Shown here one piece after another: positions 3,891 through 26,187 of a DNA stretch of 64,000 nt (the first letter of the stretch is position 1; each line of letters starts with the position of its first letter). The notes beneath the pieces are model-generated. The model searched no databases. It was not told the DNA's origin and worked only from the letters and a program-made list of their open reading frames with translations. Made by a program: the position numbers and the translations under genes. This stretch comes from Schmidtea polychroa (Eukaryota), in assembly GCA_044892525.1 (NCBI GenBank), contig CM097886.1:110918001-110982000 (forward strand), given 5' to 3'.

Positions 3891-4269
3891 CACCTAAATC
3901 CCAATCGGACAAAGAGAAAAGAGACAAAGGGGTGAAAAAGAGAAAAAACAGTAGAGTAGGGTAACATGTGAACCCGGGAACAAAGAACTATTACATAATT
4001 GATGATGTCACGAAGGAAATTACGCCATACTCCCGGAGAGGGGTATTTTTAATTTTTTTAAAATTTTTTAAATTACATAATAAAGAACTATTACACAATT
4101 AAGGCGCATTACGTAACAAAGGCATATTACAAAATAAAGACATATTACGTAATAAAGACATATGACTCATCGATTTAAACAAAGACATTACGTGATAAAG
4201 ACACATCATTAATTGGGGAAAATGGAATGTTTTAAATTAATTTGGAGCCTGATTGTCTGATATGATATT

Positions 4270-4531
4270 AGTAGTGAGGAATCTATGCACCCCAGCACCC
4301 CCACCCTCAAAAAAAACAGCGCTATTGACCCATATTTTCCACATTTATATGCTTTTTTACCCCATATTCTTCACTTTTTTTAACTTTTAAACTTTGTCCC
4401 CTATTGCCATTAACCCTTAATTTCTTCCCTTAAAAGTAAAAAAGTTCGGAATAGATGTATTTATAGATTAGTAATTCCGAGAAAAGGTAACGGGGTGCAT
4501 AGATTCCTCACTACTTGGTCTTAAGGATTTA
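4270..4531 (+). repeat. Left terminal inverted repeat of the Polinton
   Basis: Reverse complement of 19181-19444; by eye identical except an A8 vs A10 homopolymer. Confidence 0.96.
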
Positions 4532-4934
4532 ATGTTATAAGGATTTAATGTTATAAGAATATCAGATTACCTAATTCATAATGATCTAGGTCGCCTGATC
4601 ACCTTAAGGTTTTGAAAGTTTTAAAAATAAAAAATTTTATGAAAATAGTAAAACTGCTCTGAGGGGACAGTGGTATTTTTTTTTTTTTCACTGTCCCCTC
4701 AACAGTTTTTTTTTGATCCGGATCATTTTTTTTTTTTTTATTTATCAACCTCTTTCGTTTATCAAATCTCTTCCAATATACAAGCTGGCCAGACTCATAC
4801 ATCAGAATCAATCCGATAATAGCAGCACGCCTTATTATTCGCTTCTCGCTCACGAAGTCGATTTCAACGGCGTTTTAAGCGTGCTGCTCGAAAGTACAAA
4901 TGAATTCGAAAGCGAATCCGAAAGAGGTCCGAAA

Positions 4935-5024
4935 ACAACTGAGAAATAAATGTGCACATTACCGGGATCGATCCGGGGGTGTTCGAAAGACAGGTGGCGA
5001 TAATTACCGGTTCGCCACCATCAC
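4935..5024 (-). ncRNA. Putative tRNA-like / Pol III structured RNA (unit 3)
   Basis: Minus strand: A-box-like TGGCGAACCGG, D-arm-like GCGA/TCGC, 7-nt loop CTTTCGA on a 3-bp stem, T-arm-like CCGG-ATCGATC-CCGG, TTTT at ~4933-4936. No acceptor stem. Confidence 0.4.
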
Positions 5025-5206
5025 CCGTTTCAATATTTTTTTTTTCATATTTATGTTTAAAAAATAATTAATTTATAAAAAAATAAAATAAAATAAAATA
5101 AATAAAATAAAATATACAAGTACTTTATAAATATAAGATACCCACACTATTTTCAATATTATTTTCAAATTTTTAATATTATTTTATGTTGAAAAAAAAA
5201 CTAACC

Positions 5207-5503
5207 TCAGATGTGATTTGAACCACTATCCATTTGAACCACTGCGCCATCAAGGTTTGGATTTTTGTCATTTTTTAGACTATAAATAATCGATTCAAGT
5301 TCTTTAACTCTTTCCTGTAATTGTTTCATTTTCTTCAATCTTATATCAGCAACATCTACAGCCTTCATATAAAAATGTCGATACTTTTCATTATCTACCA
5401 TCAACTCTTTGATGTATTCTAATGGTTCTTCTTCTCTTCTTTTCATTCTCTTATGTTTAACTTCATTCAATTCATTTCTCATTCTTTCTTTTAACTCATC
5501 CAT
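5207..5503 (-). CDS. Small basic/coiled-coil orphan protein (98 aa) of the Polinton
   Basis: Intact ORF with the TAAAAATG start context shared with other element genes; charged helical heptad pattern. Confidence 0.65.
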   Translation of the reverse strand: MDELKERMRNELNEVKHKRMKRREEEPLEYIKELMVDNEKYRHFYMKAVDVADIRLKKMKQLQERVKELESIIYSLKNDKNPNLDGAVVQMDSGSNHI

Positions 5504-5674
5504 TTTTATAAATATTTTTTTATTGGATATATTAATTTTTGGTAGCTTAAGTTAAAACGTTTTTGATCTTAAATTTCCAAGAGTTGCCGTTGACCAATCA
5601 CCTTTAAAATTTGTACAAGTACTAAATCGAGTATGCTGATCAATATTTTGTTTAAAAAAAAATTTGAAAAGAAA

Positions 5675-5747
5675 TGACCGAAATGGGATTTGAACCCATT
5701 GGTATTGGCAATGCAGTCGAGTGCTATTACCACTAAGCTATTAGAGC
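5675..5747 (-). ncRNA. tRNA-Cys(GCA)-derived 73-nt tRNA-like RNA gene (unit 1)
   Basis: Invariant tRNA positions in register (T8, A14, G15, D-loop GG, T33, G34C35A36, G53-T-T-C-A-A, C61). Perfect T-stem ATGGG/CCCAT, acceptor 5/7 pairs, broken anticodon stem (2/5), oligo-T downstream. Confidence 0.75.
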
Positions 5748-5917
5748 TATACTCAATATAAAATAAGTTGTTAATGTGTGACTATTTATTGATGAAATTA
5801 ATAATTAATTATTCATTTTCTCGACAACTACCACTCAGATCCATCTGAAAATTTAAATATATACTAAAATCAGTACGCTGAATCAGATTCCGTTGAAAAA
5901 AAAATATCGAAAAAAAT

Positions 5918-5990
5918 TGACCAAAATCGAAAATTGAACCCGGACTCCCGGTGATAAAATTGAAGCCTATTCCCACTCCGCTATAATGGC
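5918..5990 (-). ncRNA. Second 73-nt tRNA-like RNA gene (unit 2), apparently paralogous to unit 1
   Basis: A-box TAGCGGAGTGG, B-box GGTTCAATT, ends GGTCA followed by T7. Shares ATAGC..AGTGG.AATAG, GGGTTCAA and TTT.GGTCA with unit 1; stems weak. Confidence 0.6.
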
Positions 5991-6046
5991 TTACATAATA
6001 TATTTAATTAATCCTATTGTGTGTGTGTAAATTTTAATATATAAAA

Positions 6047-7339
6047 ATGAATAATATAAATCTTAAAATTCAAGAAAAAAATAAATTAAATCTTGATTAT
6101 AATAAAGAATTTACTCATGAAATCAAGAAAAACGATGTACTTAAAATCTCCCCAACTTCAGGATCTATTGCAAACTTAAATCGTAGGGGTGATATAGTTT
6201 TTCAATCTCTTCAAACATCAAACCCTATAGATATTTGTAATGCCAAATTATATTATAAAATCGAATTAGAAATTGAAGCAAACAAAGATATAACCCTAGA
6301 AAATAATTTCTTTCCAAATTTATTCTCCAATATGAGATTAAAACTAGGATCATCAGAAATTGAAACTGTTTTACATCCGGGAGTATATTCTACAATGTTA
6401 AATTTTATTTTGACTGGTTGTGATTATAAAAATGAATATGGTGAATTAACAGGCTGGATTCCTGATGTTAATAAAGGAGATTTAGATAAAGATGGTTTAG
6501 ATATAAATTATGGTTACTATAAAAGAGCTGAACTTTATAAATCTAAAAAATTTGAAGGTTATTTTGAATTAAAACACTTGTTTGGATTCCTTCAAAACTA
6601 TAATCGTATACTTCATAATGTTTTTATAGAATTCATCTGTAATAGAGTAGAAGGTGATAAAAGATTGTTCTATGGAGCTGTAGATACAAAAGCTAAATTA
6701 AAATTATCAACACTTGAATTACATATACCTGAATGGACATTAAACCCACATTCTGAGATTAAACTCCTTGAAAGATTAAATTCCAACAAGTCTATAAATG
6801 TAAATTATTTAAATAGAATCTGTAGTGAATTTAGTATGACAGAGGGTTCAACATATTCTATAAAGGTAGCAAATTTAGCATACCGACCAAGATATATCTT
6901 GATTGGATTCAAAGAAACAGATTCATCTTTCCAAAAAAATAACAATCTATTTATTCAAAAGATTGGAGATGATAATTTAAAAACAATACAAATTCAATTA
7001 AATAGTTCTTATTATCCAATAAATAGAATGGAATTTAATATTGAAAATAATGAAAACATATTCCCATATCTAAATTATATTGAAACATGTTATGATTTCA
7101 AAGTTGAACCGCAATTAGGTTTAGAAGATTTCAAAAATTTATATTCTATATTTTGTATAAATGTTTCAGACCAAGATGATCGCCTAGCCATAAATAATGT
7201 TGATGTTACACTTCATGTAACAAAGGATTCTAATTTTAAAGCTAAAGTATATACATTAATATTAGAAGAAAAGAAAATAGAAATGAAATTATATAGTGGA
7301 AAGATTTCAATAATCGAAAATGTTAGGGGAGATTCTTGA
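6047..7339 (+). CDS. Major capsid protein (double jelly-roll, hexon-like), 430 aa
   Basis: Size, beta-rich composition and Polinton MCP-like motifs (SP...LN..G.I.F, NNFFPNLFS.MRL..G..EIE, PRYILIGF, FCINVS). Confidence 0.85.
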   Translation: MNNINLKIQEKNKLNLDYNKEFTHEIKKNDVLKISPTSGSIANLNRRGDIVFQSLQTSNPIDICNAKLYYKIELEIEANKDITLENNFFPNLFSNMRLKLGSSEIETVLHPGVYSTMLNFILTGCDYKNEYGELTGWIPDVNKGDLDKDGLDINYGYYKRAELYKSKKFEGYFELKHLFGFLQNYNRILHNVFIEFICNRVEGDKRLFYGAVDTKAKLKLSTLELHIPEWTLNPHSEIKLLERLNSNKSINVNYLNRICSEFSMTEGSTYSIKVANLAYRPRYILIGFKETDSSFQKNNNLFIQKIGDDNLKTIQIQLNSSYYPINRMEFNIENNENIFPYLNYIETCYDFKVEPQLGLEDFKNLYSIFCINVSDQDDRLAINNVDVTLHVTKDSNFKAKVYTLILEEKKIEMKLYSGKISIIENVRGDS

Positions 7340-7368
7340 TATAATCCCTGATATTTTAACATTTTAAA

Positions 7369-8769
7369 ATGTCTTTAAATAAATATTGGAGATGTGAAAC
7401 TTGTAATTGTCAAGTTACAAGACATCATAAAGCAAGCCATCTTAAAACTAAAAAACATACAGTAGGTGACCTAATTCCACGAGCTGGAGGCGATTTGCAA
7501 TCTTCAAAAACAACATCTTCAATATTAAAACCTTTTACTACAGAAAAATATCCAGGTGAAAGACATTTATTTAAACACAACTACACCGGACCAGGAACAA
7601 GATTAGATATTAGATTAGATGAAAATAATAATCCCAAACAAGGAGAAGAACCAATAAATAGAATTGATCAAGCAGCTTTAAAACATGACATTGCATACAA
7701 TTCAACAAATCTTAGAGATAGACATGTTGCAGATGTGAATTTAATACATGATTTAAATAGTATCCAAAATCCATCAACCCAAGAAAAGATTCAAAGAGCT
7801 CTAGTTAAATTAGCAATGAAAGGTAAGATTTTCATAGGCTTAGGACACAGTCCGATCACCATGGGTGCAAGACTTCCTAGGAAAGCAAAAGATGTTGCTT
7901 ATAAAAAGATTATCGAACAAGCAGAGATTGAAAGATCCCTCGAGAGTACAGCCAAGACTAGTTTACAAACCCCAACAGAATCAGAAATAAAATATGCAAA
8001 GGAATTACACCATGAATTTAGAAAAAATAAAAAATATTTAAAAGTTCAAGTACATGAAAAAGATCAAACATGGTCTGCAGATTTAGCCAAATCATCAGAC
8101 CCTGAAAAATATAAAATAATTTTAACTGTAATAGATTTATATACAAGATTTGCTTTTGCAAGATGTTTAGAAAATAAAACAGGATATTCTATTACAGAAG
8201 CATTTGAAAATATATTTGAAGAAAATCAAAGAATCCCAAAATATTTATGGTGTGATAAAGGAACAGAATTTTATAACAAAGTTTTTACAAAGTTTTTAAA
8301 TGAAAATGATATTAAATTATATTCAACAGAAAACGAAGGAAAAGCAGTCGTAGTTGAAAGATTAAATAGAACATTAAAAAATAAAATGTGGAAATATTTT
8401 ACTACTATTGGAAAACAAAAATGGAACAATGAATTGTTACAAAAGATTGTAAATGAATATAATAATGATGTACATAGTTCTATAAAATTAACACCTTTAA
8501 ATGCTTCCATGAAGCCTGAAACCATTAAAGTGGTAAATATTGAAAATGATGTTATTGAAAAACCAAAGTTTAAAATTGGTGACCGAGTAAGAATATTTAA
8601 ATATAAAAATAAATTTGAAAAAGGATTCACAGCAAAATGGACAAATGAAATTTTTATTATAAATAAAAAAAATTATACAACTCCAATAACATATAGCATC
8701 TTTGATTTAAATAATGAAAAAATATTAGGTAGATTTTATAATAATGAACTACAGAAAACAGATTTTTAA
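7369..8769 (+). CDS. int: ZnF-PLA2-retroviral-type integrase fusion protein, 466 aa
   Basis: N-terminal C2H2 finger; parvovirus-type PLA2 motifs YTGPG and KHDIAY; rve DDE triad (WSADL, WCDKGTEF, VERLNRTLK); C-terminal KFKIGDRVRI...W..EIF...Y...EL domain. Confidence 0.93.
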   Translation: MSLNKYWRCETCNCQVTRHHKASHLKTKKHTVGDLIPRAGGDLQSSKTTSSILKPFTTEKYPGERHLFKHNYTGPGTRLDIRLDENNNPKQGEEPINRIDQAALKHDIAYNSTNLRDRHVADVNLIHDLNSIQNPSTQEKIQRALVKLAMKGKIFIGLGHSPITMGARLPRKAKDVAYKKIIEQAEIERSLESTAKTSLQTPTESEIKYAKELHHEFRKNKKYLKVQVHEKDQTWSADLAKSSDPEKYKIILTVIDLYTRFAFARCLENKTGYSITEAFENIFEENQRIPKYLWCDKGTEFYNKVFTKFLNENDIKLYSTENEGKAVVVERLNRTLKNKMWKYFTTIGKQKWNNELLQKIVNEYNNDVHSSIKLTPLNASMKPETIKVVNIENDVIEKPKFKIGDRVRIFKYKNKFEKGFTAKWTNEIFIINKKNYTTPITYSIFDLNNEKILGRFYNNELQKTDF

Positions 8770-8780
8770 GTCGACAAGCC

Positions 8781-9586
8781 CTAAAACAAACTTTTCCATA
8801 TTTCAGCTTCTTCTCTATCCAAATAAATATAATTATATTTTTCTTTCCAATGATTATCAACAAACATATCAAACATATTCTTATCAGGTTCAACATTTGA
8901 AAATAAATCATTATAAATCATATTCTTATCACGGCGATCTAATTTAAAAAATATAAAACAATTGGAATTATTTCTTATTGAATTTTTATCTAAAGCATAA
9001 TATGTTTGAGATATATAAATAACATTACAATTATTATGTCGACCTCGTGTAAAGTAACTCTTTTGAATCTCTTGATTTTCATATTAACAACATCATCAAA
9101 TATAACTAGATTCTTTTTATCTTTAGGAAGTAAATCACAATGTAAAACATCTTCAGGTTTATTAGAGAATAAAACTTGAATTGCCTCCTGCCCTTCTTCA
9201 CAAATATAATCATTTTTATTACTAATATCTGATTCTAAAATCTTTTCCTTATACCAATCAACCATATCAAAAGGTTGAAAAACTTCTTCAGGACACCTAT
9301 GTTGATTTTTAAAAATATCAATTATTGCTTTTTTAGTTAATTTATTTTCAAATCCACATTTCAAAAGTTGTAATTCTGGTTGATTTATGGTTGTAGAATA
9401 AAAGATTAAATTATTATAATCTAAAAAATCATCTTCAAGTAACATTCTCAAAACAAGTACATTCTTTCCACATCCAGAAGAACCAACAATTAATAATCTA
9501 AAATTATCAGGAAATACTTTATTATTAAATTTACTCTTATGTCTATTTAAAATTGGTTTCCAAATTATTGGACTTCGTACATCCAT
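8781..9586 (-). CDS. A32/FtsK-like packaging ATPase with a 1-nt frameshift at ~9076-9079
   Basis: Walker A GSSGCGK and Walker B LVIFDD. Adding one A to ATGAAAATC restores NQEIQKSYFTRGRHNNCNVIYISQTYY..IRNNSNCFIFF to TAG at 8781-8783. Likely start ATG at 9586 (CAAAATG), not the TTG at 9625. Confidence 0.9.
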
Positions 9587-9601
9587 TTTGTTTATTATAA
9601 A

Positions 9602-10180
9602 ATGACAACTGAAGAATCTTTGCAAGAATTAATAAATTCAAATAAAAATAAATCAGTAGTAATTGATGGTAAAAAATATTTTATTGGAAAACATGTAAAA
9701 GAACAAGTTAGAGCGAAGATCCACGAAGCTAAAGAAGGTGGCATTCTTCCATTAGCTGCTTTAATACCTGCAATCATTGCTGGTTTATCAGGTGCTGCTG
9801 GAATAGCTGGAGGAATTGCAACTACAGTTCAAAAAGATAAAGAATCTCAAAAGACAGACCTAGAAAAAGAAAAACTACAAACTGAAATCGATTCAATGAA
9901 GAAGGTAGGGCAAGCTAAAGGGGGAGTGTCCGTTGGAAAGGGTCTCTATCTTAATCCATATGAGGGGAGTCGGCAAAAGTCTCAGGGCAAAGGTCTCTAT
10001 CTTGATCCTTATAAAGGTAGAGGTTTAAATGATTTTTTAAAAAATCAAATTTCTACATCTGAATCTTTATCTTCAAAAGATAAAGAAGATTTAAAAAAAA
10101 TATGTAAATCTTTAAAGAATGGATGCCTTTGTAAAACTAAAAATGGTAAAGGATTATACTTGAAGCCCTTCGAACTATGA
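9602..10180 (+). CDS. Adenovirus pX-like core / membrane-active precursor protein, 192 aa
   Basis: KEGG-ILPLAALIPAIIAGLSGAAGIAGGIA resembles the adenoviral pX C-terminus (GG-ILPLLIPLIAAAIG); three GKGLYLxP(Y/F) repeats. Confidence 0.65.
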   Translation: MTTEESLQELINSNKNKSVVIDGKKYFIGKHVKEQVRAKIHEAKEGGILPLAALIPAIIAGLSGAAGIAGGIATTVQKDKESQKTDLEKEKLQTEIDSMKKVGQAKGGVSVGKGLYLNPYEGSRQKSQGKGLYLDPYKGRGLNDFLKNQISTSESLSSKDKEDLKKICKSLKNGCLCKTKNGKGLYLKPFEL

Positions 10181-10202
10181 TACCATTTTTGATACCATTA
10201 AA

Positions 10203-11084
10203 ATGGTATATGAAGAAAGATTAGCACTTTTAAAAAAATTACAATCAGAACAAGATAAATATAATAAAAAAGATACAACTCAACATGCTGAATCTATAAT
10301 ATTAAATGAGGTAATAACACAACAACAGGGGCCAACAATTAAAGCTATAAAAGAGTTGGAAGATTTCAATGAGCAAGCAAAATTTAAAGAGTTAGAAGAT
10401 AAAAAACAAAAAATAAAAGAACTAGAGTGGCAGGATAAAGAAAAAGAATCCAGTAAAAACCATCCTGAAAGAAATCAAAGAAAACGCAGAAGAATTTCTA
10501 ATGTGGAAGAAGAAGAAATGTTTTTAAAAACAAAACCTCTTAAAGTTGATCCTAAAATTAGAGATGATTTACCTCCTTCAATTAGACCCACATTTAATAC
10601 TAATACTGAAGGATATCAAATAATAACAATTAATAAACAAAACTTTACTTTATATTCAAATTCAGAAAATAAATCACGTATTCATTCACAAAATGTTTAT
10701 AATAATGAATATTTAGACTTTGAATTTACAGATGATTTTTATAGATTACTTTGTGGATATTCTTCAGATGATGTTGAAGAAATTAAAAAATATTTAAATT
10801 TAATAAGATTAATAAGAGCTAGTTCTAAAGCAAAATATATTCAAGATTTAAAGAATTATTTAAATAAAAATGAAAAGGGTTATGTTGTTACAGAGGGAGA
10901 GGGATTAATTAGTGAAGGTGGTAAACCAAATCCCATCAATCTTTTTATTGAATTAAGAAAACTATTAGCTGCAAGGAAAGCAGGACATAATAATTTAGAT
11001 TCTGATATTTTAAAGATTTCTAAAGATTTGTTAAAACAAGGAATAATTTCAAAAGATAAATTTAATAAGTATACGAAGTTATAA
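10203..11084 (+). CDS. Conserved Polinton protein of unknown function, 293 aa
   Basis: Intact ORF with TAAAATG start. C-terminal GEGL...ELRKLLAARKAGHNN...I..ISKDLLKQGII matches a motif I recall in Polinton ORFs. Confidence 0.7.
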   Translation: MVYEERLALLKKLQSEQDKYNKKDTTQHAESIILNEVITQQQGPTIKAIKELEDFNEQAKFKELEDKKQKIKELEWQDKEKESSKNHPERNQRKRRRISNVEEEEMFLKTKPLKVDPKIRDDLPPSIRPTFNTNTEGYQIITINKQNFTLYSNSENKSRIHSQNVYNNEYLDFEFTDDFYRLLCGYSSDDVEEIKKYLNLIRLIRASSKAKYIQDLKNYLNKNEKGYVVTEGEGLISEGGKPNPINLFIELRKLLAARKAGHNNLDSDILKISKDLLKQGIISKDKFNKYTKL

Positions 11085-11106
11085 ATACGAAGTTTTAAAA
11101 TACAAA

Positions 11107-11511
11107 ATGACTCCTTCAATATTAGATTTTTTAAAAACATTTGGAATAAATGCAAAAACAAATTTTGATTTAAAAGATTATGCAAATTATTTAAATTTAA
11201 AAATTAAAATATTAATGAATGATGAATTATCAAGTCTGGAGAGTCCCCTGAATATAATAATCAATTATCAAAATTCAAATGAAAAAGGATCTCATTGGGT
11301 TTGTATATATAAGAAATCTATCTACTTTGATTCTTTTGGGATTAAACCTACTAAAGAAGTTGAAGATTATCTCTTGAGGGGTTCTCCGATTGATTCCCCA
11401 AATGGTTATACTTTTAACTCTTTACAAGTTCAACCTTTGAATACTAAAATATGTGGTATTTTAAGTTTATATGTTTTGTATAGATTGAAAGGGGCATACG
11501 CAGGATTTTGA
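11107..11511 (+). CDS. Adenain-like cysteine protease (maturation protease)
   Basis: GSHWV, YFDSFG, QVQ and CGILSLY give the His/Asp/Gln/Cys catalytic set. The C-terminus may be frameshifted at GGGG 11491-11494. Confidence 0.92.
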   Translation: MTPSILDFLKTFGINAKTNFDLKDYANYLNLKIKILMNDELSSLESPLNIIINYQNSNEKGSHWVCIYKKSIYFDSFGIKPTKEVEDYLLRGSPIDSPNGYTFNSLQVQPLNTKICGILSLYVLYRLKGAYAGF

Positions 11512-11605
11512 ATCTATAATTCAAGAAATTTATAATGATCTAGAATCTCTACTATAAGGATTTTTACTATAAGGATTTTTACTATATGAATTTACTACTA
11601 AAGAA

Positions 11606-12370
11606 ATGGAGCTTCACAACCCTCCGGAAGATAATTTTAAAAAAATGGTAAACATAATGTCAGATAAATATTCAAGAACTTTATCTATAAATTCAAAAGA
11701 ATCAGACTTTACTATAAACTTTCAAGATTCAATTAAATTAGATCAAAATTTAAATTATGAATTGGGGCTATTATGGTTTTGTGCTTATAATACTATTTTT
11801 AATATAACTAAAGATAATAATAAATTTACTATTCAAACTCGTGATGGGCATAAACCAGAAATTATAACAATAGAACCTGGGGCATATGAGATAAAAGATT
11901 TAAATGATATACTTTCTAAAAAAACAAATGAAGGTATTAAAATTAAAATGGATATACCAACTTCAAAATGTGTAATGACTTTGAAGAATATAAAAATTAG
12001 TTTTTTAGATAATTGTTTCTTTCACACAGTTTTAGGATTTAAACCTATGGATATAACAATAAAAGAAGATAAAATAATAACATCAGAACATATTATAAAA
12101 ATAATAAATACAAACACAATAAATATTCATTGCGATTGTATAACAGGTTCTTATAATAATGGTAAACAAACAAATGTTTTATATTCCTTTCCCTCAAACA
12201 CAGTTCCTATGGGATATAAAATAGTTGAAAGAATGAATCCTCCAAATTATTTACCTTTATGTAGAAAATTTATAATGGATATTAATTTTAAAATTCTTAA
12301 TCAAGAAGGAGAATTGATTGATTTTAATGGAGAAGAGATTTCAATGTATTTACATTTGAAACAGGTTTGA
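11606..12370 (+). CDS. Minor capsid protein (penton, single jelly-roll), 254 aa
   Basis: Polinton penton motifs YNTIFNIT..NNKF, G.YEI.DL, VLGF, INIHCD.I.GSY.NG...VLYSF, P.YLPL, Q.G.LIDFNGE.I...LHL. Confidence 0.9.
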   Translation: MELHNPPEDNFKKMVNIMSDKYSRTLSINSKESDFTINFQDSIKLDQNLNYELGLLWFCAYNTIFNITKDNNKFTIQTRDGHKPEIITIEPGAYEIKDLNDILSKKTNEGIKIKMDIPTSKCVMTLKNIKISFLDNCFFHTVLGFKPMDITIKEDKIITSEHIIKIINTNTINIHCDCITGSYNNGKQTNVLYSFPSNTVPMGYKIVERMNPPNYLPLCRKFIMDINFKILNQEGELIDFNGEEISMYLHLKQV

Positions 12371-12394
12371 AGATTCATTTTAAATTATTAATAA

Positions 12395-13405
12395 ATGAGT
12401 TCTTATATTCCATGTAATAGAGGTGGTGGAACAATAAAAACAGGGTTTAATACAGAAGAAATATTAACTTTAACAGAAAATAAATATATTAATGAAATAG
12501 GTGATTCAATGAAGGGTGATTTAATTTTAAATGGACACAAGATAAAAGAATTATCTTTTCCAACTGATGAAGCTGATGCAGTTAATAAGAAATATGTAGA
12601 TGGTGTTAAAAAATATACTGATTTAACAACAACAAGAATTGAAAGTTCATTAACAACAAAAATTGATTCAATGGAATCAAAGCTTAATAATATCGAACAA
12701 CGATTTAATGATAAATTTGACAAGTTACAAAGTCTGTTAACTGAACAAGTTGTAAAGTTAAATACTGCTATATTAAATTCTAAAGATAAACAAATTATGA
12801 ATACTAAATTTAATACAATATATAAAATAATAAATGAGATGATTACATCATTTAATAAAAGAATTTCAAATTTAGAGTCTCATGGAACACACATTAACAC
12901 CACACATAGTATTAGAAAAAGAGCTGCTGAATTAGAACAGAATAAAACATTATTACCCCATACATATAAACATTTTATAGAACCAAGTTTAATAACAACA
13001 AACAGTAAAGAATGGGGTGTTTTTATGGTTGTAAAAATTATTGATCCTTATTTCTTTTTGTTTGATGATGATAATGAAAGAATGAAATGGTTTGTGAAAT
13101 GTGATTATAATAGTATGCTTGAAAAGGGTGATGTTATAATGACTAGTTATGATTTACCACACGGAGATTGGTATGTTAATACTCATTCACATGGACTACA
13201 TAAAGTTAAAAGTAAGAATATTCATTTTTCTAGTTCACTTGTACAATATATAGATTTAATATTTTATGAAAAAAAGGTTGATGTTGATGAAGTTCGTAAA
13301 GCATTGAGAGAATTGTATAAAGATATCCTCTCAACAAGAGTTTCTTTTGATATCCGAGTATTGGTGCCAGATGGTGCTCAGAAGAATAAAGTCTTATTTT
13401 TTTAA
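12395..13405 (+). CDS. Putative fiber / receptor-binding protein, 336 aa
   Basis: GDSMKGDLILNGHKIKEL..P....DAVNKKYVD tail-fiber-type motif, then a long coiled coil and a beta-rich C-terminus; lies directly after the penton gene. Confidence 0.55.
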   Translation: MSSYIPCNRGGGTIKTGFNTEEILTLTENKYINEIGDSMKGDLILNGHKIKELSFPTDEADAVNKKYVDGVKKYTDLTTTRIESSLTTKIDSMESKLNNIEQRFNDKFDKLQSLLTEQVVKLNTAILNSKDKQIMNTKFNTIYKIINEMITSFNKRISNLESHGTHINTTHSIRKRAAELEQNKTLLPHTYKHFIEPSLITTNSKEWGVFMVVKIIDPYFFLFDDDNERMKWFVKCDYNSMLEKGDVIMTSYDLPHGDWYVNTHSHGLHKVKSKNIHFSSSLVQYIDLIFYEKKVDVDEVRKALRELYKDILSTRVSFDIRVLVPDGAQKNKVLFF

Positions 13406-13413
13406 TTATTAAA

Positions 13414-14025
13414 ATGGAAGAAGTAAGAGAAGAAAAAATTTACCCAGAATTGAGATCATCAGGATATTATTCCGAAGGTCACAAAGGTTCCAAGGCCTCG
13501 GCTCCCACAGAACTTGAAATTATGAGAGTAAAAGAATTTAAATCAGAAACCTTACATATAAAAGATTTATTAAAGCATTATAAAAAAATTAAAAATAGAT
13601 GGAATAAAGGGAATACAGTTTTAAAAGTTATAGGTTATTCTTTAGGATTTGCATCTGCAATATTAACAGTTATTTTACCCATAACTTTACCAGTTGTTAC
13701 TCTTGCACCTGTAATACTTGGAAGTATTTCTGTGGCTGATGGTTTCTTAACTGAAATAGTTTCATTATCTTATACTTCTAAAAAGAAAAGTTTATATAGA
13801 GAAGTTTGTTTATCAATAGAATTAGGAATCTCTAAATTATTTTTATTTCAATTAAAAGCTTTGGAAGATGGAATCCTGACAGACGAAGAAATAATGAAAT
13901 CAAATCAAATAATACAAGATATAAAGAATGAGGTTATAAGATTAAAAAGGGAGGGCATGGTGGCTAATGTTATAAGTAATAAAAAAACATCTCGAGAAAA
14001 ATGGTTAAAGAATTCTTACTTATAA
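13414..14025 (+). CDS. Polinton membrane protein (two hydrophobic helices), 203 aa
   Basis: IYPEL...SAP N-terminus, hydrophobic VIGYSLGFASAILTVILPITLPVVTLAPVILGSISV, and an LEDG.L..EE motif; intact ORF. Confidence 0.7.
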   Translation: MEEVREEKIYPELRSSGYYSEGHKGSKASAPTELEIMRVKEFKSETLHIKDLLKHYKKIKNRWNKGNTVLKVIGYSLGFASAILTVILPITLPVVTLAPVILGSISVADGFLTEIVSLSYTSKKKSLYREVCLSIELGISKLFLFQLKALEDGILTDEEIMKSNQIIQDIKNEVIRLKREGMVANVISNKKTSREKWLKNSYL

Positions 14026-14103
14026 AATGGGTGTATTTTTAAAAAAGTAGATCAGGTTGCTATAGTTGCTTAAATTAATTGTCGACATTTTATTATTAAA
14101 AAA

Positions 14104-14658
14104 TTAAATATCGTTGAAAGCCAACCTATGAATCATTAATTTATGATATTTAAATTCTTTATCACTTAGACCTTTTATATATTCAGGATCAGTATTAAAA
14201 TATTTAAGTTCTAAACATATAGGATTAAAAACTTGAGAATATAAAGGTTTCTCGATTTCTCTCTGGGGATAAATAATTTCAACATTATAAATATCAAGAT
14301 CAGTAATCTTTGTATCATATAACTTCTTCAACTTTTCTAGATTTTTTATTATAGGGATTAAATTATTTCCAATAGGTAGAGTTGTCTTTAAATCACTTAG
14401 TATGAATCTCTTATCATCATAATTTGATAATGATACTTTTTGAGATTCTATCAAGTGAATATCATGGTTTTCACTTTTAAGTTGATGTATTTCATCAATT
14501 TTATCTTTATGATTTGGGTTTAATGTATCTATATAATCTTGATGAGAAAGATTCTTTGCAACCACTCTCTGTATTCCTTTACATCTGTTATCCTTTAAAT
14601 TAGTAATATTTTTTATAATTTCAAAAATGTTATTTTCTTGATTTTTAGTTTCCATCAT
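14104..14658 (-). CDS. Stand-alone paralog of the pPolB C-terminal domain, 184 aa
   Basis: Aligns without gaps to the PolB tail from KGIQ through HKLM (about 60% identity by hand over ~150 aa). Has its own TAAAATG start and no catalytic motifs. Confidence 0.85.
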   Translation of the reverse strand: MMETKNQENNIFEIIKNITNLKDNRCKGIQRVVAKNLSHQDYIDTLNPNHKDKIDEIHQLKSENHDIHLIESQKVSLSNYDDKRFILSDLKTTLPIGNNLIPIIKNLEKLKKLYDTKITDLDIYNVEIIYPQREIEKPLYSQVFNPICLELKYFNTDPEYIKGLSDKEFKYHKLMIHRLAFNDI

Positions 14659-14682
14659 TTTATAGTGTTAAAATTCTAATTC

Positions 14683-17600
14683 TTAGAGCAGTCGTAATTG
14701 ATTTATAATTATTTCTGCAGTAATGCTTTTTAACATTAATTTATGTGATTTAAAGTCTTCTGGTGTTAGTCCTTGGATATATTCAGGATCAGTATTAAAA
14801 TATTTAAGTTCTATAGGTTTTATATTTTGAACTTGATTATATAAAGGTTTAGGAATTAATATTTCAGGATATTGGATTTCTACTTTAGCAAGTTGAAGGT
14901 CTGTAATCTCTAGGTTATAAATTTCATTTATTTTATCAAGATTTTTTATTATAGGGATTAAATCATTTCCAATAGGTAATGTTGTCTTCAAGTCAGAAAG
15001 TATAAATCTTTTATCATCATAATTTGTTATAGCAATCTTGTTACACTCTTCAAGATATATATTATGTTTCTCTGATTTAAGATGATGGGTTTTAGCAATT
15101 TTATTTTTATAATTTATATTTAATGAATCTTTATACTCTTGATGTGTGAAGGTTTTTGACACTGATTTTTGAATTCCTTTACTTTTATTTTCTTTATAGC
15201 TTTTCGGGTTTTCAGGGAATGAAGGATATTCAAATGTTCGATCTACTTCAACAGATCCTTCTATTATAAATTTTATTGTATGCTCTTTCATAATTGGTTT
15301 GTCTTTCATTTCAAGAGAATATTGTTTAGGTCTAATAAACACTCCTCCAGTTATTGGAGTATTTGGTTTTTCATCTTTAAAAGTAAACAACTCTCCAGAA
15401 TTGTTTATTAATTTATTTAAGGTTGGATCTTCACGTATTTCTTTTTTGAAATCTTTGCTATATCCTTTTAAAAACATACTATCAGTGTCCATTGCATGCA
15501 TGGATATTCGATCTCCAAAATGTGGTACTAGAACATCATAGTAAGCTTCATACATTTGAAGCTTTGAAAGTTCTAAAATTGAAAACCCTATAAAGATTGG
15601 TTTATTATAAGTTTTTACAGAGTTTTTAATCTCTATGGCTATAAGGTTACTAGAGAATATCTCGGCATTTTTAAATGTGGGCTTTCCAATTATCCAGTTG
15701 TACCTATTAAGGTCTTTGGATGTATTGGTCAAAAGCTCTACACGTGTGTACTTGTCTATATTCTCCATGGTCTTTCCAAAGACCGCATTGTTCAGGAGTT
15801 TGTAAATCATATCAAGAAATGCATTTCCAGCTCTCTTTGCTGCATTTCTTTTCAAAATATTTCCCTCTATGAATTTTTTCATAAAAGGGGCTTGTCGAAA
15901 TTTAATAATGGAATGTACTTTTTTTAAAACCATTCCATGGGAGAGATAAAACTGAAGGAGTCTATAATGACAAAGGTAATCAGTTTTATCCGTCTGATCG
16001 CATAAAAGTTTTATACAGGGCGATCTATCCTGAGCCATCTGCCAGTCTGAAAGTTCTTCAGTCGAGATCTTTCTTCTTACTGGAGCAAATGGAAAGAATC
16101 TTGTCCTGGATTTTATTTCATTGGGATATTCAAGATCACATTCTATGACATATCCATATTGTGAATTCTTTGGTGTTTTTAGAATTTCTTGTATTAATTC
16201 CTCAGTGGGCTCTTCCCAGGTGAACTTGCCAATTGGAAGGTATTGAGTCATTACTCCTCCATATAAAGCTGTTGCATCTATATACATTATTTCAGAAGGA
16301 TTAGAAAGACCTTCCAGTATTTCCTCACGATCTTCTGGGTTTGTTATTTCTACATATAGAGCATCAGTATCTTTGAAAAATTTAGGATAAAGAGTTGTAA
16401 AATTATTAGCATTTATTTCTCTATTCCCTTGTACTGAAGAAATACCTCCTCTAATATTATGTTTATATACATTAAACATATCAAGGTCAACTAATAATTC
16501 AATGGTTTTATTTCTTTCTGCTATGTCTTCATCGGTCCATATGCTATATAATAATATATCCCAAGCTAGAGAGGGAGCGGTTATATAATTATAAGGTTTT
16601 AATTCAAAAGCTTTTGAAAATGTCTCGAAGTAATCAGCTAAGATATAAACATCTAAGGAAAGATACATGTCAGTATATTCTCCAAGGTTTCTACAGTTGA
16701 AAAGATTCCACATTTTAAGTGCACGGGAATATTCCTGATCAGAAATCCCTGATTGTGTTAAAACAGAAAAGAAATCTTCTTGAGCTGGGAGTAATTCATT
16801 ATATTTTTCAAAGGAGTCTATATAATCATATGGATAGATTCCTTTTGCTAGACAGGTATTATATTCCTCTAATGGAATATTGTTTTTTAATAACACATGT
16901 TCTTTTGTATATTTAAAATCCTCAGGGTTCATAGTTTTTGCAATGCCATCCAAAGACATCCCTAAGAAATTTAAGGAGTCCAAAAACTTAAAGCATCCAT
17001 ATTGAATGCTTTTATATTTTTCTTTTGTAAGTCCAATAACCTTGAAAGAGTTTTTAGCATTTGCAGCTAGATGTTTAATGAACAGGTGAATATCATAGCC
17101 AAAAAGATTGTGAAATATAAATGGTATGTGTGTTGGTTTTTTACAATTGAGATTACAATTTTTATGGGCCGCTCCTCTGTAATTATTTTCTATTTTAAAA
17201 TGATCATGGTCAGGAACCTTAAGTTCACTAGTTGACTCCTCATCCTCGAACTCTTGTTTGCACATCCAGCAGTGTGTTGCATTTTTATATTCTTCCTCTT
17301 GTTCTTCTGAAAAATTCATAGGAAAGTTGGATTTTAATATTATATATAATTCATGTTCTAGATTATTTAAAGTTTCAACAAAATGGTCTAGAGTCTCTTT
17401 GTCAGAAGTTCCCCTAAATGAATATTCTCTAGATTCTACAAGTTCTGGATAATTACTTTTGAAAAACATTTTATAAGCAGAGGGTAATTGTTTTGTTAGT
17501 TTTACAGTATTAGTTTTTGTTCGTCTTAGTTTTACATTTATAGCTTCAAAATCACAATAAACCACTCCCAATGCTTCTAATAGATTGGAATAGTTTTTAA

Positions 17601-19068
17601 ACCTCATATTAGCATTTTTCTTGTGTGGCATTTTTATTAAAGCAGGTTGATTCTTACAACAGAGTCTCTCATGTTTAATAGCAGCAAGTTTTGAAGTTGA
17701 ATGATATAAACATCTTTTACAACATATGCCTCCACGAATGAGTGTGTTTCCTTTCATAAAACTTTGAAAATTCTTTATTAAGATATAATGAAGTTTTTTA
17801 TCTAACATAGTGCCTCCGGACGCAGTGCTTTCTGCTTCTGGTTCTAATGAAATGCCTTCTTCTGCTTCCATAACCTTCGGGTGAATACTTTGAACCTCTT
17901 CACCATATTCTTCTCCATCAAACTCTTCGTCTGCTTTACCTTCTTCTAATATTAAAAGATCTACTTCTCTCTTTTCATCTGAGATTTCCATATTAGAAAT
18001 GTAAATAGGAATAATTTGTTTATAATTTTTATATTTTCTAGTTTTTGTAATTTTGGTTGGAATGAATTGATAAATATTAATTTTAAGATTATTTAATTTT
18101 TCAAATGCTAGAACATCTTCAATTTTCATTGGGTGGGAAAAATCTTTTGGATATATTAATTCAGATTCATATTCTTCATATTTTTGAACTCTCTGTGGGT
18201 TAGTTGCTTGAGGATGTAAGTGTGCAAGTATTGACCATTGAAAACATTTATTATCTTTATTCTGTACATTTATAACATGGTTGGAGGTGAATGGTGTATG
18301 AATAAAAGATTTAGGATTTGGTGGTGCACCTCTCCAGTATTCAATCTCTATGTTTTGAAAAGAGTGGAATCTTAAATTAGATTCTCCTAGTTCTTGTTCC
18401 ACCTGTTCTTGTTTTTCTTCCAATTCTTTAGCTATATCATTAACAAGTTTATTTCCTGCTTTTGTAGAAAATAAATATTTATATGAGGTTTCAATTTTTA
18501 CATCTAGAGGCATTGCGATCGAATCATCTCCTCTCCAGTATTTTGCATTTCCTGTAAATTTAACTTTTATAACATTAAATCTTGATCTACCAAATTTTTT
18601 TATAGCATCATCCATTGATGATATTATTTTTTTTTTATTTTCTCTTATATATTGCATGATTGATCTGGGTCCTCGTTTTACTTCTGCAATTACATCGGTG
18701 TGATTGAAGTTGTCCCAATTAAACTCTAGTTTTTCAGCTTTTTCAGTCATTGAGTTTGAATCAGAATCTTTTGCTTCAAGACCACAATCTTCTATGTGTC
18801 TTAAGTAAAAAGATTTTATCTTCATATTTTTTCCACATGCTGAACATTCGAATATTTCTCTGTTTTTAGGAACTCCAATACAATTTTTAAAATATTTCTT
18901 ATAACCTGAAAATAAATATCTATCCTTACATTTAGTACAGATTTTGGAATTAGTGTCATCTAGTGTGTTAGCTTTTATTAAATGGTCTTTTGATTTTTTA
19001 TGAGATGTTAAAGCAGTTTTATTTTTAAAATATTTTTCACAAATTTCACAATTGAAAATAGCTTCCAT
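14683..19068 (-). CDS. polB: Protein-primed family B DNA polymerase (N-terminal ZnF, terminal protein region, vOTU-like region, Endo VII finger), 1461 aa
   Basis: Exo motifs YCDFE, FHNLFGYD, YLSLDV; Pol motifs DATALYG, KLLNNAVFGK, MDTDS; EndoVII-like CWMC..DHDH..YRGAAH..CN; NKCF...HY Cys/His pair. Confidence 0.96.
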   Translation of the reverse strand: MEAIFNCEICEKYFKNKTALTSHKKSKDHLIKANTLDDTNSKICTKCKDRYLFSGYKKYFKNCIGVPKNREIFECSACGKNMKIKSFYLRHIEDCGLEAKDSDSNSMTEKAEKLEFNWDNFNHTDVIAEVKRGPRSIMQYIRENKKKIISSMDDAIKKFGRSRFNVIKVKFTGNAKYWRGDDSIAMPLDVKIETSYKYLFSTKAGNKLVNDIAKELEEKQEQVEQELGESNLRFHSFQNIEIEYWRGAPPNPKSFIHTPFTSNHVINVQNKDNKCFQWSILAHLHPQATNPQRVQKYEEYESELIYPKDFSHPMKIEDVLAFEKLNNLKINIYQFIPTKITKTRKYKNYKQIIPIYISNMEISDEKREVDLLILEEGKADEEFDGEEYGEEVQSIHPKVMEAEEGISLEPEAESTASGGTMLDKKLHYILIKNFQSFMKGNTLIRGGICCKRCLYHSTSKLAAIKHERLCCKNQPALIKMPHKKNANMRFKNYSNLLEALGVVYCDFEAINVKLRRTKTNTVKLTKQLPSAYKMFFKSNYPELVESREYSFRGTSDKETLDHFVETLNNLEHELYIILKSNFPMNFSEEQEEEYKNATHCWMCKQEFEDEESTSELKVPDHDHFKIENNYRGAAHKNCNLNCKKPTHIPFIFHNLFGYDIHLFIKHLAANAKNSFKVIGLTKEKYKSIQYGCFKFLDSLNFLGMSLDGIAKTMNPEDFKYTKEHVLLKNNIPLEEYNTCLAKGIYPYDYIDSFEKYNELLPAQEDFFSVLTQSGISDQEYSRALKMWNLFNCRNLGEYTDMYLSLDVYILADYFETFSKAFELKPYNYITAPSLAWDILLYSIWTDEDIAERNKTIELLVDLDMFNVYKHNIRGGISSVQGNREINANNFTTLYPKFFKDTDALYVEITNPEDREEILEGLSNPSEIMYIDATALYGGVMTQYLPIGKFTWEEPTEELIQEILKTPKNSQYGYVIECDLEYPNEIKSRTRFFPFAPVRRKISTEELSDWQMAQDRSPCIKLLCDQTDKTDYLCHYRLLQFYLSHGMVLKKVHSIIKFRQAPFMKKFIEGNILKRNAAKRAGNAFLDMIYKLLNNAVFGKTMENIDKYTRVELLTNTSKDLNRYNWIIGKPTFKNAEIFSSNLIAIEIKNSVKTYNKPIFIGFSILELSKLQMYEAYYDVLVPHFGDRISMHAMDTDSMFLKGYSKDFKKEIREDPTLNKLINNSGELFTFKDEKPNTPITGGVFIRPKQYSLEMKDKPIMKEHTIKFIIEGSVEVDRTFEYPSFPENPKSYKENKSKGIQKSVSKTFTHQEYKDSLNINYKNKIAKTHHLKSEKHNIYLEECNKIAITNYDDKRFILSDLKTTLPIGNDLIPIIKNLDKINEIYNLEITDLQLAKVEIQYPEILIPKPLYNQVQNIKPIELKYFNTDPEYIQGLTPEDFKSHKLMLKSITAEIIINQLRLL

Positions 19069-19180
19069 TTTTAAAAGAATTTTTTGGTTGGATACGATGT
19101 TTTGGTTTTGATATTAATTTTTATTAATTTTTAAATCCTTATAACGTTAAATCCTTAAATCCTTAAATCCTTTAAATCCT

Positions 19181-19444
19181 TAAATCCTTAAGACCAAGTA
19201 GTGAGGAATCTATGCACCCCGTTACCTTTTCTCGGAATTACTAATCTATAAATACATCTATTCCGAACTTTTTTACTTTTAAGGGAAGAAATTAAGGGTT
19301 AATGGCAATAGGGGACAAAGTTTAAAAGTTAAAAAAAGTGAAGAATATGGGGTAAAAAAGCATATAAATGTGGAAAATATGGGTCAATAGCGCTGTTTTT
19401 TTTTTGAGGGTGGGGGTGCTGGGGTGCATAGATTCCTCACTACT
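19181..19444 (-). repeat. Right terminal inverted repeat of the Polinton
   Basis: Reverse complement of 4270-4531; followed by TSD GATATT. Confidence 0.96.
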
Positions 19445-20292
19445 GATATTTTAAGTCCAATAAATATTACAAGTAAAGTACTTCAGAAAGAAAATTTTAA
19501 TGTTTCGGAAGCTACAACAGTACTTTCTAATAGTATTGACTATTTAAAAAAGTACAGAACAGATGATAAGTTTAAGTTATTCAAGAGGCCAAAGAAATTG
19601 CACTACAATTAGAAATTTAGCCAGAGTTTGAGAAAATAAGAAATCGTCGCAGAAGAAAGCAATTCGAAGTAATCAATGATGCAGCACAAAATTTTAAGAA
19701 TAATTTTTTAAAAAAATCCTTGATCAAGCAACTGTGTCATCAAATGATAGGTTTACGTTGATTCGGGAGCACAATAAAAATTTTNNNNNNNNNNNNNNNN
19801 NNNNNNNNNNNNNNNNNNNNNNNNNNNNNNNNNNNNNNNNNNNNNNNNNNNNNNNNNNNNNNNNNNNNNNNNNNNNNNNNNNNNNNNNNNNNNNNNNNNN
19901 NNNNNNNNNNNNNNNNNNNNNNNNNNNNNNNNNNNNNNNNNNNACTGCGGGAACCGTATAAATCCGCACGGCCGTTTGCATGCAGTAATGAGACACAAAA
20001 TATGCAAAAGCGCCCCGCAGCGAATCTTGCTACACTCTTAAAATATATCGGAATATATATGCTACGTTAATTATTAGCATCATCTTTGGCCAACGTTTTC
20101 ATAGCGCTAAGAGGTGAAAAGAGTTTTTCAAAATTAAAACTAATTAGAACCTATATACGCTCTACGATGAGACAAGAACGATTAGATGCTCTGGCCACTT
20201 TGCCAATTGAACTTGAAATTGCCAAAAATTTAAATGAAGAGGAATTAATTGATAGGTTTGCTACCATAAAGGCTCGAAAGATTAGTTTTTAA
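19445..20292 (+). pseudogene. hAT (ZMYM1-like) transposase remnant interrupted by the Polinton and by an N gap
   Basis: The frame LIV*YDI (left flank, ~4249-4269) continues as DILSPINITSKVLQ (right flank). The C-terminal dimerization segment GEKSFSKLKLIRTYIRSTMRQERL is at 20086-20292. Confidence 0.8.
19785..19943. other. Assembly gap (others at 53785-53913 and 61945-62095)
   Basis: Runs of N. Confidence 0.99.
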
Positions 20293-23761: not shown

Positions 23762-26118
23762 CTAATGACAAGAACAAGTAAATACAATAGAATCGTTTTG
23801 TAGAATGTGGTCATTGTTTAATACTACATTTAATAAAATAAAGCAGTTTTCACCGACGGCATGATTGCGCCCCCTTAGCGGTTTGTGAAAACCTATCAAA
23901 TCCTTGTTTTTGCAATTATCGTAACTGAATGTTTTACTAAAATGAATTTGATTTGATGTCTGGTTCATCAAACTGATGGTCACGCAACGCCTCATTGGCC
24001 ATTCTAATTTTTCATCATGAGTTCCTCGAGATAAATAAAAGAAAACCGACAGATATTTATCCCGACCACTACCATATCCATTCGGATATAGCTCTAGTAC
24101 CAATTGGTAACCATTGATATGGGAATAAAATTGATCACTGGTAAAAGTTGATATTTCTCCTTTTTTTGCCCATTGTAACTTATTATAGAAATTTTCGATT
24201 TTCCAACGAAAGGGTTTATACAAATTATTGTTTTGGACAAAATTAAGAATTCTATTCCTAGCTTTCGATGCAGATTTTACTGGGATCGGGGAAGTTTGCG
24301 TATTATGATGATAATCTGGTTTCCATTCAATTGTTTGCTGATTCATATTTGATTTGATTACTAACCTTTCGACACCGTTAACTATTGATTTGCACTGAAA
24401 ATTCAAAATCAAGCAAATTTTCTTTCTGTTCCATCATAGGTGATATCAATCAAATTTATTTATCAAAGAAACAAAATTAACAAAAAACATGATAAGTGGA
24501 AATTAGAAATAAATTCAAGTTATTAAAAATCCATATCTAATGATTGACTATTTTCAAAATTATTTAAATTAAAATTATATAAATATTAAAACTGATTTAT
24601 GTAGAAAAAAACATTGAAAATAAATGATTTTGATAAAATTGAATATAATTTGGTTTTTTGAAATCAATATAATTTTATCAAATATACTTTTGTTTGTTCT
24701 AATTGAAATTAATTTATAGTTAAGATAATTCATATTTGAAATCATGAAAGTAGTGATGAAGATGAAATCATGCAAGAAGTTAGAGACTTGAGCATTTTGA
24801 GCAGAGGGGTCGAAGGTTATTATTATTAAACAATTAATTAATGCGGTTACCAGGAAATCATCACTTTATACTTATTATTATTATTTATTATTACAAGTAA
24901 ATGATAATATATGTCTTTTGCTGCAAATTATATATTGAATAAAATGAAAAATATGTCGATACATAATATAAAAATAATCCTTATCAATTTCAGAAATTAT
25001 TATCATTTAGCAAAATATTAAGACATTTATATGTATTAGTTAGAAATACACTGATATGTGAAATAACGATTGCCAAATTCATATGCAATTTAAGTAAAAC
25101 ATGAACATTTGTATATTATTTAGCAAAGTCTTGTAATTAATATAATTTAATTAAAAAATAATACTTAAATAAACACGGTAAAGATTTTATTAATAAAAAT
25201 CGCCATTCATACATCTTTTTCACTATATATTTCGATAGCATCACTATCATCATCATGTTACCTACATTCACGACGGTTGAATAACTATACTATATTGATA
25301 ATATATAAACAAATTATAAAATCTATAAATTTTAAATTATAAATAAAAATTTCAAACATTTATTTTTTTTTATTTTTATAAATAATTTTCAACAATCAAT
25401 TATATTTAAACTTTTAAAATTATTAAAAATATTATTTTAATTATTTTTTTAATTATTTAACATAACTATTATTAATATACATCAACATACAAAAACTTAA
25501 TTAAAAACATTTAACACACAAGTATTCACTGCATTCTGCACATTGATTTTAGGATTAAAAGTTCTTATCAATAATGCTTCACATATCACACGCTCAAAAC
25601 AATTATCAAAACTTTTTGATAAGATTTTAAAATCAGACATTCCTAATTCTCTCATACAGACTTTATTGTGATCCTTAATATTGGACACTCCTTTCGGTCG
25701 ACAGTGTTCTTCAACTCGAGTACAGAGATGACGGGAAGTCTCTCCAATGTATGTAGCATTACACCCATTACACGTGAATTGATAAACGAGATCCGAAAAC
25801 AATCCAACCAGCGTTTGAGATTTACTAACAAACATACTACGTACTTTGCACGATTTTGAAACAATTCTATAATTCAATGTACCTAACTGTTTACCAATCT
25901 TTCTTTTGAAATCTTTATATCCTTCAGAATACGGCAATACCATCGTATATTTTGGCTCATCTTGTTTGTTAGTATCAATACTCATATTCACTACATCATT
26001 CGATATATCAGTCAATTTACATTCATTCATACTACGATTCTTAGCATTATTCATACATTTATCAACAGTCTCTTTCAACGTTAACAATAAAACCCGTTTT
26101 GAGTAGCCATTCTTCACC

Positions 26119-26187
<69 letters not shown>

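Follow-up and report, generated by a model that had tools for sequence, protein, structure and literature searches.

A non-decoding tRNA-Cys-related unit common to planarian Polintons and the host rDNA spacer

What is a sequence resembling tRNA-Cys doing in the arm of a Polinton, and where did it come from? We addressed this question in a 64-kb stretch of the Schmidtea polychroa genome (781 Mb, four large chromosomes), hereafter the window. An earlier note on this DNA had singled out a 73-mer as a tRNA-Cys-derived gene inside a Polinton, in which decoding had been lost while selection kept the Pol III promoter and the tRNA elbow. This 73-mer, which we call T2, corresponds letter by letter to the window read from 5747 to 5675, that is, on the minus strand, which the note did not give. 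Its placement in a Polinton is correct: the left arm that holds T2 belongs to a complete element with terminal inverted repeats (TIRs), a target-site duplication, and genes matched by Pfam (Table 1). The element combines a protein-primed type B DNA polymerase (pPolB), a retroviral-type integrase, and a double-jelly-roll capsid protein, as Polintons and adintoviruses do; a match to a packaging ATPase was weak (E 0.003, below the cut-off). Searching metagenome and viral contigs with the capsid sequence gave no confirmed relative, and the 41 capsid homologs found came without DNA context. The T2 core occurred in none of the viral contigs, and its single metagenome match was discarded as a chance one with unrelated flanks.

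Table 1. Coordinates of the features discussed (window positions, except for the last row)
Feature	Position	Strand	Remarks
Complete Polinton/adintovirus-type element	4270..19444		TIRs of ~280 bp; target-site duplication of 6 bp (4264-4269, 19445-19450)
T1, resident Polinton A-box/B-box/oligo-T unit	5201..5256	-	~18-nt internal deletion here relative to most copies
Cassette with T3 and T2	5540..6035		91-97% identical to the intergenic spacer of the host's 45S rDNA; a direct repeat of 6 nt on both sides (5534-5539, 6030-6035)
Oligo-T run directly after T2, predicted Pol III terminator	5667..5674	-	Sequence, copy comparison
T2, 73-nt unit in tRNA register, non-decoding, 5' half tRNA-Cys-derived by comparison	5675..5747	-	Rfam, pair table, host comparison, rDNA identity
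B box of T2 (tRNA positions 52-61)	5687..5696	-	Sequence and motif scan
A box of T2 (tRNA positions 8-19)	5729..5740	-	Sequence; 12/13 identity to host tRNA-Cys at 7-19
T3, second A-box/B-box/oligo-T unit	5918..5990	-	Present in the rDNA spacer too; 57 bp from the capsid ATG, the two head-to-head
Major capsid protein (double jelly roll)	6047..7339	+	Pfam PF21738, E 1.4e-26
Retroviral-type integrase with PLA2-like domain	7369..8769	+	Pfam PF00665, PF08398
pPolB	14683..19068	-	Pfam PF03175, E 1.3e-11
Spacer array of A-box/B-box/oligo-T units	L234:1773-2860 (G000:C261)	Opposite to rRNA	Five units, ~3 kb upstream of 18S

T2 has the anatomy of a type-2 Pol III gene: A and B boxes lie inside it at tRNA spacing, and at least four T come next. 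In the window copy the T run is interrupted by one C, at a site where 28 of 29 other copies have T. [quoted passage not shown] The tRNA model of Rfam (RF00005) scores T2 at 32.4 bits (gathering score 29, E 0.0027) and matches nothing else in window positions 1-25000. In tRNA register, GCA stands at 34-36, T at 37, the T stem is paired at 5/5 and the anticodon stem at 2/5, all as the earlier note had stated, with 5/7 pairs in the acceptor (one G-U counted) and 3/4 in the D stem. The loss of decoding structure that it had read from this also holds: with such an anticodon stem, a pyrimidine at 37, an acceptor of 5/7 pairs (2/7 in a second haplotype, see below), and no tRNA called by ARAGORN in the window, we rejected a functional tRNA-Cys gene.

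The claimed descent from tRNA-Cys stands for one part of the unit. Aligned to a host tRNA-Cys gene (L043), T2 is identical at 26/30 positions from 7 to 36, at 2/12 from 37 to 48, and at 11/17 in the T arm, so by this comparison its 5' half is Cys-derived and its 3' part not clearly so. Among the five host tRNA types compared, the T arm is closer to tRNA-Ser(GCT), at 15/17. The T-stem sequence does depart from tRNA-Cys as claimed, with three two-sided differences. These may reflect another donor and do not require compensation; since no two-sided change was found among 86 Polinton copies checked for compensatory T-stem changes, and since the arm is nearer to the host Ser-GCT, we did not count them as selection.

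Nor does the predicted fold resemble a cloverleaf. The D-loop GG and the anticodon are hidden in an alternative hairpin, formed by bases 16-26 with 33-42, whose pair probabilities are 0.75-1.0, while those of the D-stem and acceptor pairs are 0.0 (as predicted for unmodified RNA). The minimum free energy is -19.3 kcal/mol (z -2.45, equaled by 4/200 shuffles), as against +2.5 kcal/mol when the cloverleaf is forced, and random letters at 37-48 reach the same hairpin in 40-100 of 5000 trials. The proposal that the elbow is kept by selection thus found no support. Besides the D-loop GG being paired into the other hairpin, about half of the Polinton copies have lost the 5' strand of the acceptor, the D-stem pair 12-23 is broken in most rDNA copies, and diverged homologs of T2 in a satellite have a T stem of only 3/5 pairs.

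T2 is abundant. Exact matches to its 20-nt core number 3,035 in the genome, and near-exact ones 3,267 (control, 0). The first 100 exact matches lie within 52.5 Mb; extrapolated, this gives ~1,500 dispersed copies or half of the total, the split between rDNA and Polintons being an estimate from hit density. The sampled loci run on as Polinton arm or capsid sequence in 29/29 best hits and in 39 of 40 position-ordered loci (the first 40 regions among 70 listed matches outside the best-hit set), the remaining one being rDNA; T2 is therefore not the head of a host SINE, the finding that would have spoken against the earlier note. In a sample of 97 loci chosen by their capsid gene, biased by that choice and read over 1.25-1.5 kb upstream, 46 carry T1, T2, and T3, 36 only T1, two T1 and T3, one T2 and T3, and 12 none. 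Three elements with TIRs matched at 98-99%, read in their arms, have no unit in either arm. A common haplotype, B, differs at its 5' end, where a 9-nt deletion replaces the acceptor 5' strand; it makes up 19/47 of the capsid-chosen and 24/39 of the position-ordered copies, and we regard it as derived because the rDNA copies carry the other form, A. Contigs from four sequencing runs that we guessed to be RNA were also examined: one X1 contig covers 5539-5813 with 22 differences, and one contig each of X1 and X2 joins 5533 to 6030, the form without the cassette; these contigs carry no information on strand, ends, or level.

The sole non-Polinton locus (L148) pointed to a probable origin of this neighborhood. 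It is part of a 13.46-kb tandem repeat present on many contigs, which proved to be the 18S-5.8S-28S rDNA, and window positions 5539-6035 are 91-97% identical to its intergenic spacer. The units sit between the end of 28S (L235:2682) and the start of 18S (L234:5727), at L235:5647-6629, with a period of ~13.46 kb. The spacer holds five A-box/B-box/oligo-T units (T0, T3, and three T2), 237-244 bp apart and running opposite to rRNA, which looks like a degenerate tRNA array; T2 copies vary from one to four per rDNA repeat unit. No known RNA, 5S included, scored above its gathering score in the spacer. T2 and T3 are, judging by their common flanks, old duplicates. T1 was not found in the spacer and T0 was absent from 198/198 Polinton loci tested. 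When T0 was tried as the parent of T1, they were alike in the box regions only, and flanks were matched by 4/300 shuffles upstream and 244/300 downstream.

The Polinton cassettes are nested within spacer sequence; their ends fall into two sets, and they occupy two positions in the arm. They end near L234:2660 in 113 of 124 cassette-bearing loci and near 2730-2746 in four (two elements, each fetched twice), start ~40 bp upstream of the first unit, and match nowhere else in the spacer. One Polinton (L284, G000:C3:21844610-21847720) has its pPolB gene interrupted by a recent insertion of 695 bp of rDNA spacer at 99.2% identity, T0 included, which indicates that transfer from rDNA to Polintons happens. 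Next to rDNA there is also a 1,245-bp satellite with a T2 homolog (52-54/73) and the same spacer flank, extending 120 bp past any Polinton end, so that the junction of T2 and spacer looks older than the Polinton copies. At position 23, most rDNA copies of T2 have T and all 117 Polinton matches A; T breaks the D-stem pair 12-23 and falls in the bulge of the alternative hairpin, and other rDNA arrays hold the Polinton-type state. Taken as a whole, sequence comparison makes rDNA to Polinton the probable direction of transfer. In the rDNA copy L277, T2 is identical to that of the window. The suggestion that the Polinton had shaped this sequence is consequently not supported, also because its conservation does not exceed that of the spacers, as follows.

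We compared T2 with the spacer sequence around it in 47 capsid-chosen T2 carriers from 84 loci, leaving out L001-L030, which had been picked on T2 identity, and the duplicates L116, L122, and L133. Alleles shared between copies occur at 1/67 sites of T2 versus 15/295 of the spacers (p 0.32), and T2 shows no deficit of singletons relative to the spacers (p 0.20); at capsid third positions, shared alleles occur at 34/100. The cassette is thus less diverse than capsid third positions, as expected for a recent spread, and on these counts the whole of it is young and T2 is not singled out for conservation. Between rDNA and satellite, the T2 body is even less conserved than its flanks (76-83% versus 88-100%), and differences in the boxes are not significantly rarer than elsewhere in T2 (3/22 versus 16/51 and 6/22 versus 15/51 sites; p 0.15 and 1.0).

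The paralog T1 behaves differently. Using 161 stretches chosen by their downstream flank, from 141/160 loci (L116, L122, L133, L027, L028, and L039 dropped), variants carried by at least 10 units were found at 1/22 box sites versus 22/51 other sites (p 0.0008, with the threshold picked after inspection of the table and the sites being linked). The single common variant in a box is a purine swap at 9, and the variable sites elsewhere include acceptor and T-stem positions. The contrast is weaker for variants in at least three units (4/11 in the A box, 3/10 in the B box, 25/36 elsewhere). Among 129 units, T1 comes in 71 haplotypes, which have no common fold. What is persistent across the paralogs, by these alignments, is the boxes, their spacing, and the T run, and not the elbow. 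Of the proposed selection on promoter and elbow, the promoter half agrees with the intact A and B boxes and T run of T2, box-specific conservation being found only in the paralog T1; selection on the elbow is unsupported.

We tentatively favor, with a confidence just short of even, the view that T2 is a non-decoding Pol III promoter unit, likely captured from rDNA, on which TFIIIC and Pol III would land, keeping chromatin open. A Polinton family would have taken up the cassette from the rDNA spacer, perhaps helped by the 6-nt microhomology at the capsid-side end, and recombination among subfamilies would later have spread it over several TIR and capsid backgrounds. TFIIIC and Pol III are predicted to bind the boxes and may produce a U-tailed transcript of ~75 nt whose fold would matter little; the benefit would arise at the DNA level, as open chromatin adjoining the capsid promoter and a barrier against silencing. 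tRNA genes are described as barriers to H3K9me3 silencing (PMC11830863), and Polintons as piRNA-silenced with H3K9me3 in a planarian (PMC8532177). The outward orientation of the units, the presence of T1 at both ends (in other subfamilies, within TIRs of 1-1.2 kb), and the piRNA/H3K9me3 targeting fit this proposal. In a bolder version, which we consider rather unlikely, Polintons would repeatedly draw on the rDNA spacer for Pol III boundary units, to be used as portable shields against piRNA silencing; that such shields are what places outward-facing units beside the capsid promoter and at the element ends is an equally speculative part of it.

A neutral passenger ranks close behind the captured promoter as a reading of the locus, and is itself a possible, if doubtful, one: the cassette would have been captured from the rDNA spacer, have ridden with successful lineages, and have been refreshed or lost by recombination. 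The conservation of T2, not above that of the spacers, agrees with this, as do the absence of the cassette from many intact sister elements, the 9-nt acceptor deletion in so many copies, and L284, where a piece of spacer landed in a Polinton despite breaking a gene. What a passenger does not readily explain is that the piece kept, out of a 7-kb spacer, is the one with the A/B units, in two arrangements and oriented as the resident T1; that cassette diversity is low over differing capsid and TIR backgrounds; and that haplotype B retains the A box.

Another possibility, which we hold to be improbable, is that T2 encodes a viral RNA comparable to VA RNA or the tRNA-like RNAs of MHV68, i.e., an abundant Pol III transcript of ~75 nt whose 10-bp hairpin (16-42) decoys RNA-defence proteins of the host. 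The energy of the predicted fold and the rarity with which random letters attain the hairpin would suit it; moreover, the main rDNA variant alters only the bulged base 23, the satellite keeps 9/10 hairpin pairs while 3-4/6 loop bases have changed (p 0.07-0.15), and VA RNAs are considered to have originated from tRNA genes (PMC6599070). However, the hairpin is already present in host rDNA, none of the 86 copies has a two-sided change of a pair, satellite copies are predicted to fold differently and weakly (~-10 kcal/mol), T1 has many haplotypes and no common fold, and sister elements do without T2. As T2 is an element of the host rDNA spacer common to an estimated ~1,500 Polinton copies, its shape is not readable as viral adaptation. 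Adenovirus VA RNAI/II, EBV EBERs, and MHV68 tRNA-miRNA genes offer a parallel: there, too, the dsDNA genome of a virus or virus-like element holds several type-2 Pol III units that probably stem from tRNAs (PMC4378190, PMC6599070). Unlike these, the predicted T2 RNA is ~75 nt, half the length given there for VA RNA (~160 nt, PMC4378190), and has no pre-miRNA hairpin before the T run; T2-type units are dispensable and share no conserved fold among paralogs.

Slightly less probable still is that the transfer went the other way, or both ways, with the units arising in Polintons and one haplotype entering the rDNA spacer and being homogenized there. Polinton cassettes are indeed more diverse (95-99.5%) than the sampled rDNA copies (100% alike), L130 is 99.5% identical to rDNA, and the haplotype commonest in rDNA falls within the Polinton diversity, where some haplotypes have states in common with the satellite that those rDNA copies lack; Polintons also own an older unit, T1. 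Against this, neither TIR nor other Polinton sequence was found in the spacer, T0 and the diverged satellite connect the array with the spacer, and the one event of clear direction, L284, runs from rDNA to Polinton. The uniformity of rDNA is explained by concerted evolution, and other rDNA arrays hold the Polinton-type position 23. As for T2 being the head of a SINE, or a working tRNA-Cys aiding translation of viral genes, the 3,035 core copies, the Rfam score above the tRNA cut-off, and the GCA kept in satellite copies give this a very slim chance, given the Polinton or rDNA context of all sampled loci, the immediate T run with no body or tail and a cassette that begins upstream of the first unit, the broken stems and T37, the unfavorable cloverleaf, the negative ARAGORN result, and ~1,000 tRNA-Cys-type matches that the host already has. 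The tRNA-derived SINEs (SINE2) do have tRNA-derived A and B boxes and thousands of copies, as T2 does; unlike them, T2 has no body, tail, or target-site duplication of its own, and moves only within Polintons or tandem arrays.

T2 can be compared with several known systems. The closest that we found to the spacer array is the extrachromosomal rDNA of Dictyostelium discoideum, with A/B-box loci outside tRNA context (PMC5391098). There, too, duplicated A/B-box units with tRNA spacing lie in non-coding rDNA, are not tRNAs, and are proposed Pol III sites (PMC5391098). In contrast, the units of S. polychroa are of tRNA length, T2 having a tRNA-Cys 5' half, and form an array of 240-bp period opposite to rRNA in chromosomal animal rDNA; and whereas the Dictyostelium loci are targets of retrotransposons (PMC5391098), here the units have been taken into a DNA transposon or virus. 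tRNA genes are reported in polinton-like viruses (PLVs), virophages, and MELD viruses (PMC12220804, PMC8502044), and T2 resembles them as a tRNA-type sequence in a Polinton-class element. Those tRNA genes are predictions, interpreted as codon supplements (PMC12220804, PMC8502044), unlike T2, which fails ARAGORN, is without an anticodon stem, and can be traced to the rDNA spacer rather than to a tRNA locus. The supplements of PMC12220804 list PLV non-coding RNAs, which may be informative on the frequency of degenerate units. With the tRNA-gene barriers of PMC11830863, T2 shares the clustering of A/B-box units adjoining a Pol II gene in surroundings that tend to be silenced; unlike there, the barrier is a prediction, and a mobile element carries these degenerate units as natural passengers.

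In the open-access literature that we searched, there was no report of a Polinton with Pol III units common to host rDNA, nor of an animal rDNA spacer with a degenerate tRNA array of five units, Dictyostelium being nearest. Our finding points to such a five-unit array, and if this is true, it would be previously undescribed in an animal rDNA spacer. The young Polinton copies, in which the same capsid gene is accompanied by zero, one, two, or three Pol III units, constitute a natural experiment, allowing comparison of chromatin and expression by existing methods. If the bolder version with repeated capture is right, it would show in real time a process from which viral Pol III genes of the VA type may have arisen.

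Several further features were noted along the way. In loci L134, L136-L141, and L152-L159, the same capsid gene is combined with four or more types of TIR and with two of pPolB (~70% DNA identity), some of their TIRs being internal foldbacks, and modular recombination appears strong among these Polintons. At L214-L225, TIRs are extended to 1.0-1.2 kb, are 98-99.5% alike, and bear an outward T1 at both ends, sometimes doubled. On the minus strand of the window, positions 4780-5030 are GC-richer and form hairpins (z -1.75, 5/200 shuffles), occur in 140/165 loci tested, and contain, by eye, A-box-like and B-box-like motifs; many contigs of the sequencing runs guessed to be RNA map to 4690-4975. 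An ORF of 98 aa at 5207-5503 (minus strand) has no Pfam match, diverges little among copies, is deleted in many, and reads through T1 in the window copy. Another, of 184 aa at 14104-14658 (minus strand), resembles the C terminus of the pPolB ORF as a partial duplicate. Two identical ORFs of 192 aa, HMG-box-like by eye, lie near a Polinton arm (L243:6199 and 8340). Outside the Polinton, the minus strand of the window has ORFs that look like MATH/TRAF (23762-24346) and a Penelope-type GIY-YIG endonuclease (25497-26120), again by eye. The 1,245-bp satellite beside rDNA (L244-L255, G000:C1:145-168 kb; L238) is a tandem of at least 20 copies with short subrepeats. Lastly, host tRNA genes form long tandem arrays of a single type, with periods of 281 bp for Cys, 324 bp for Ser, and 424 bp for Lys, at G000:C1:269.25 Mb, C1:60.3 Mb, C4:76.66 Mb, and C140/C333/C474.
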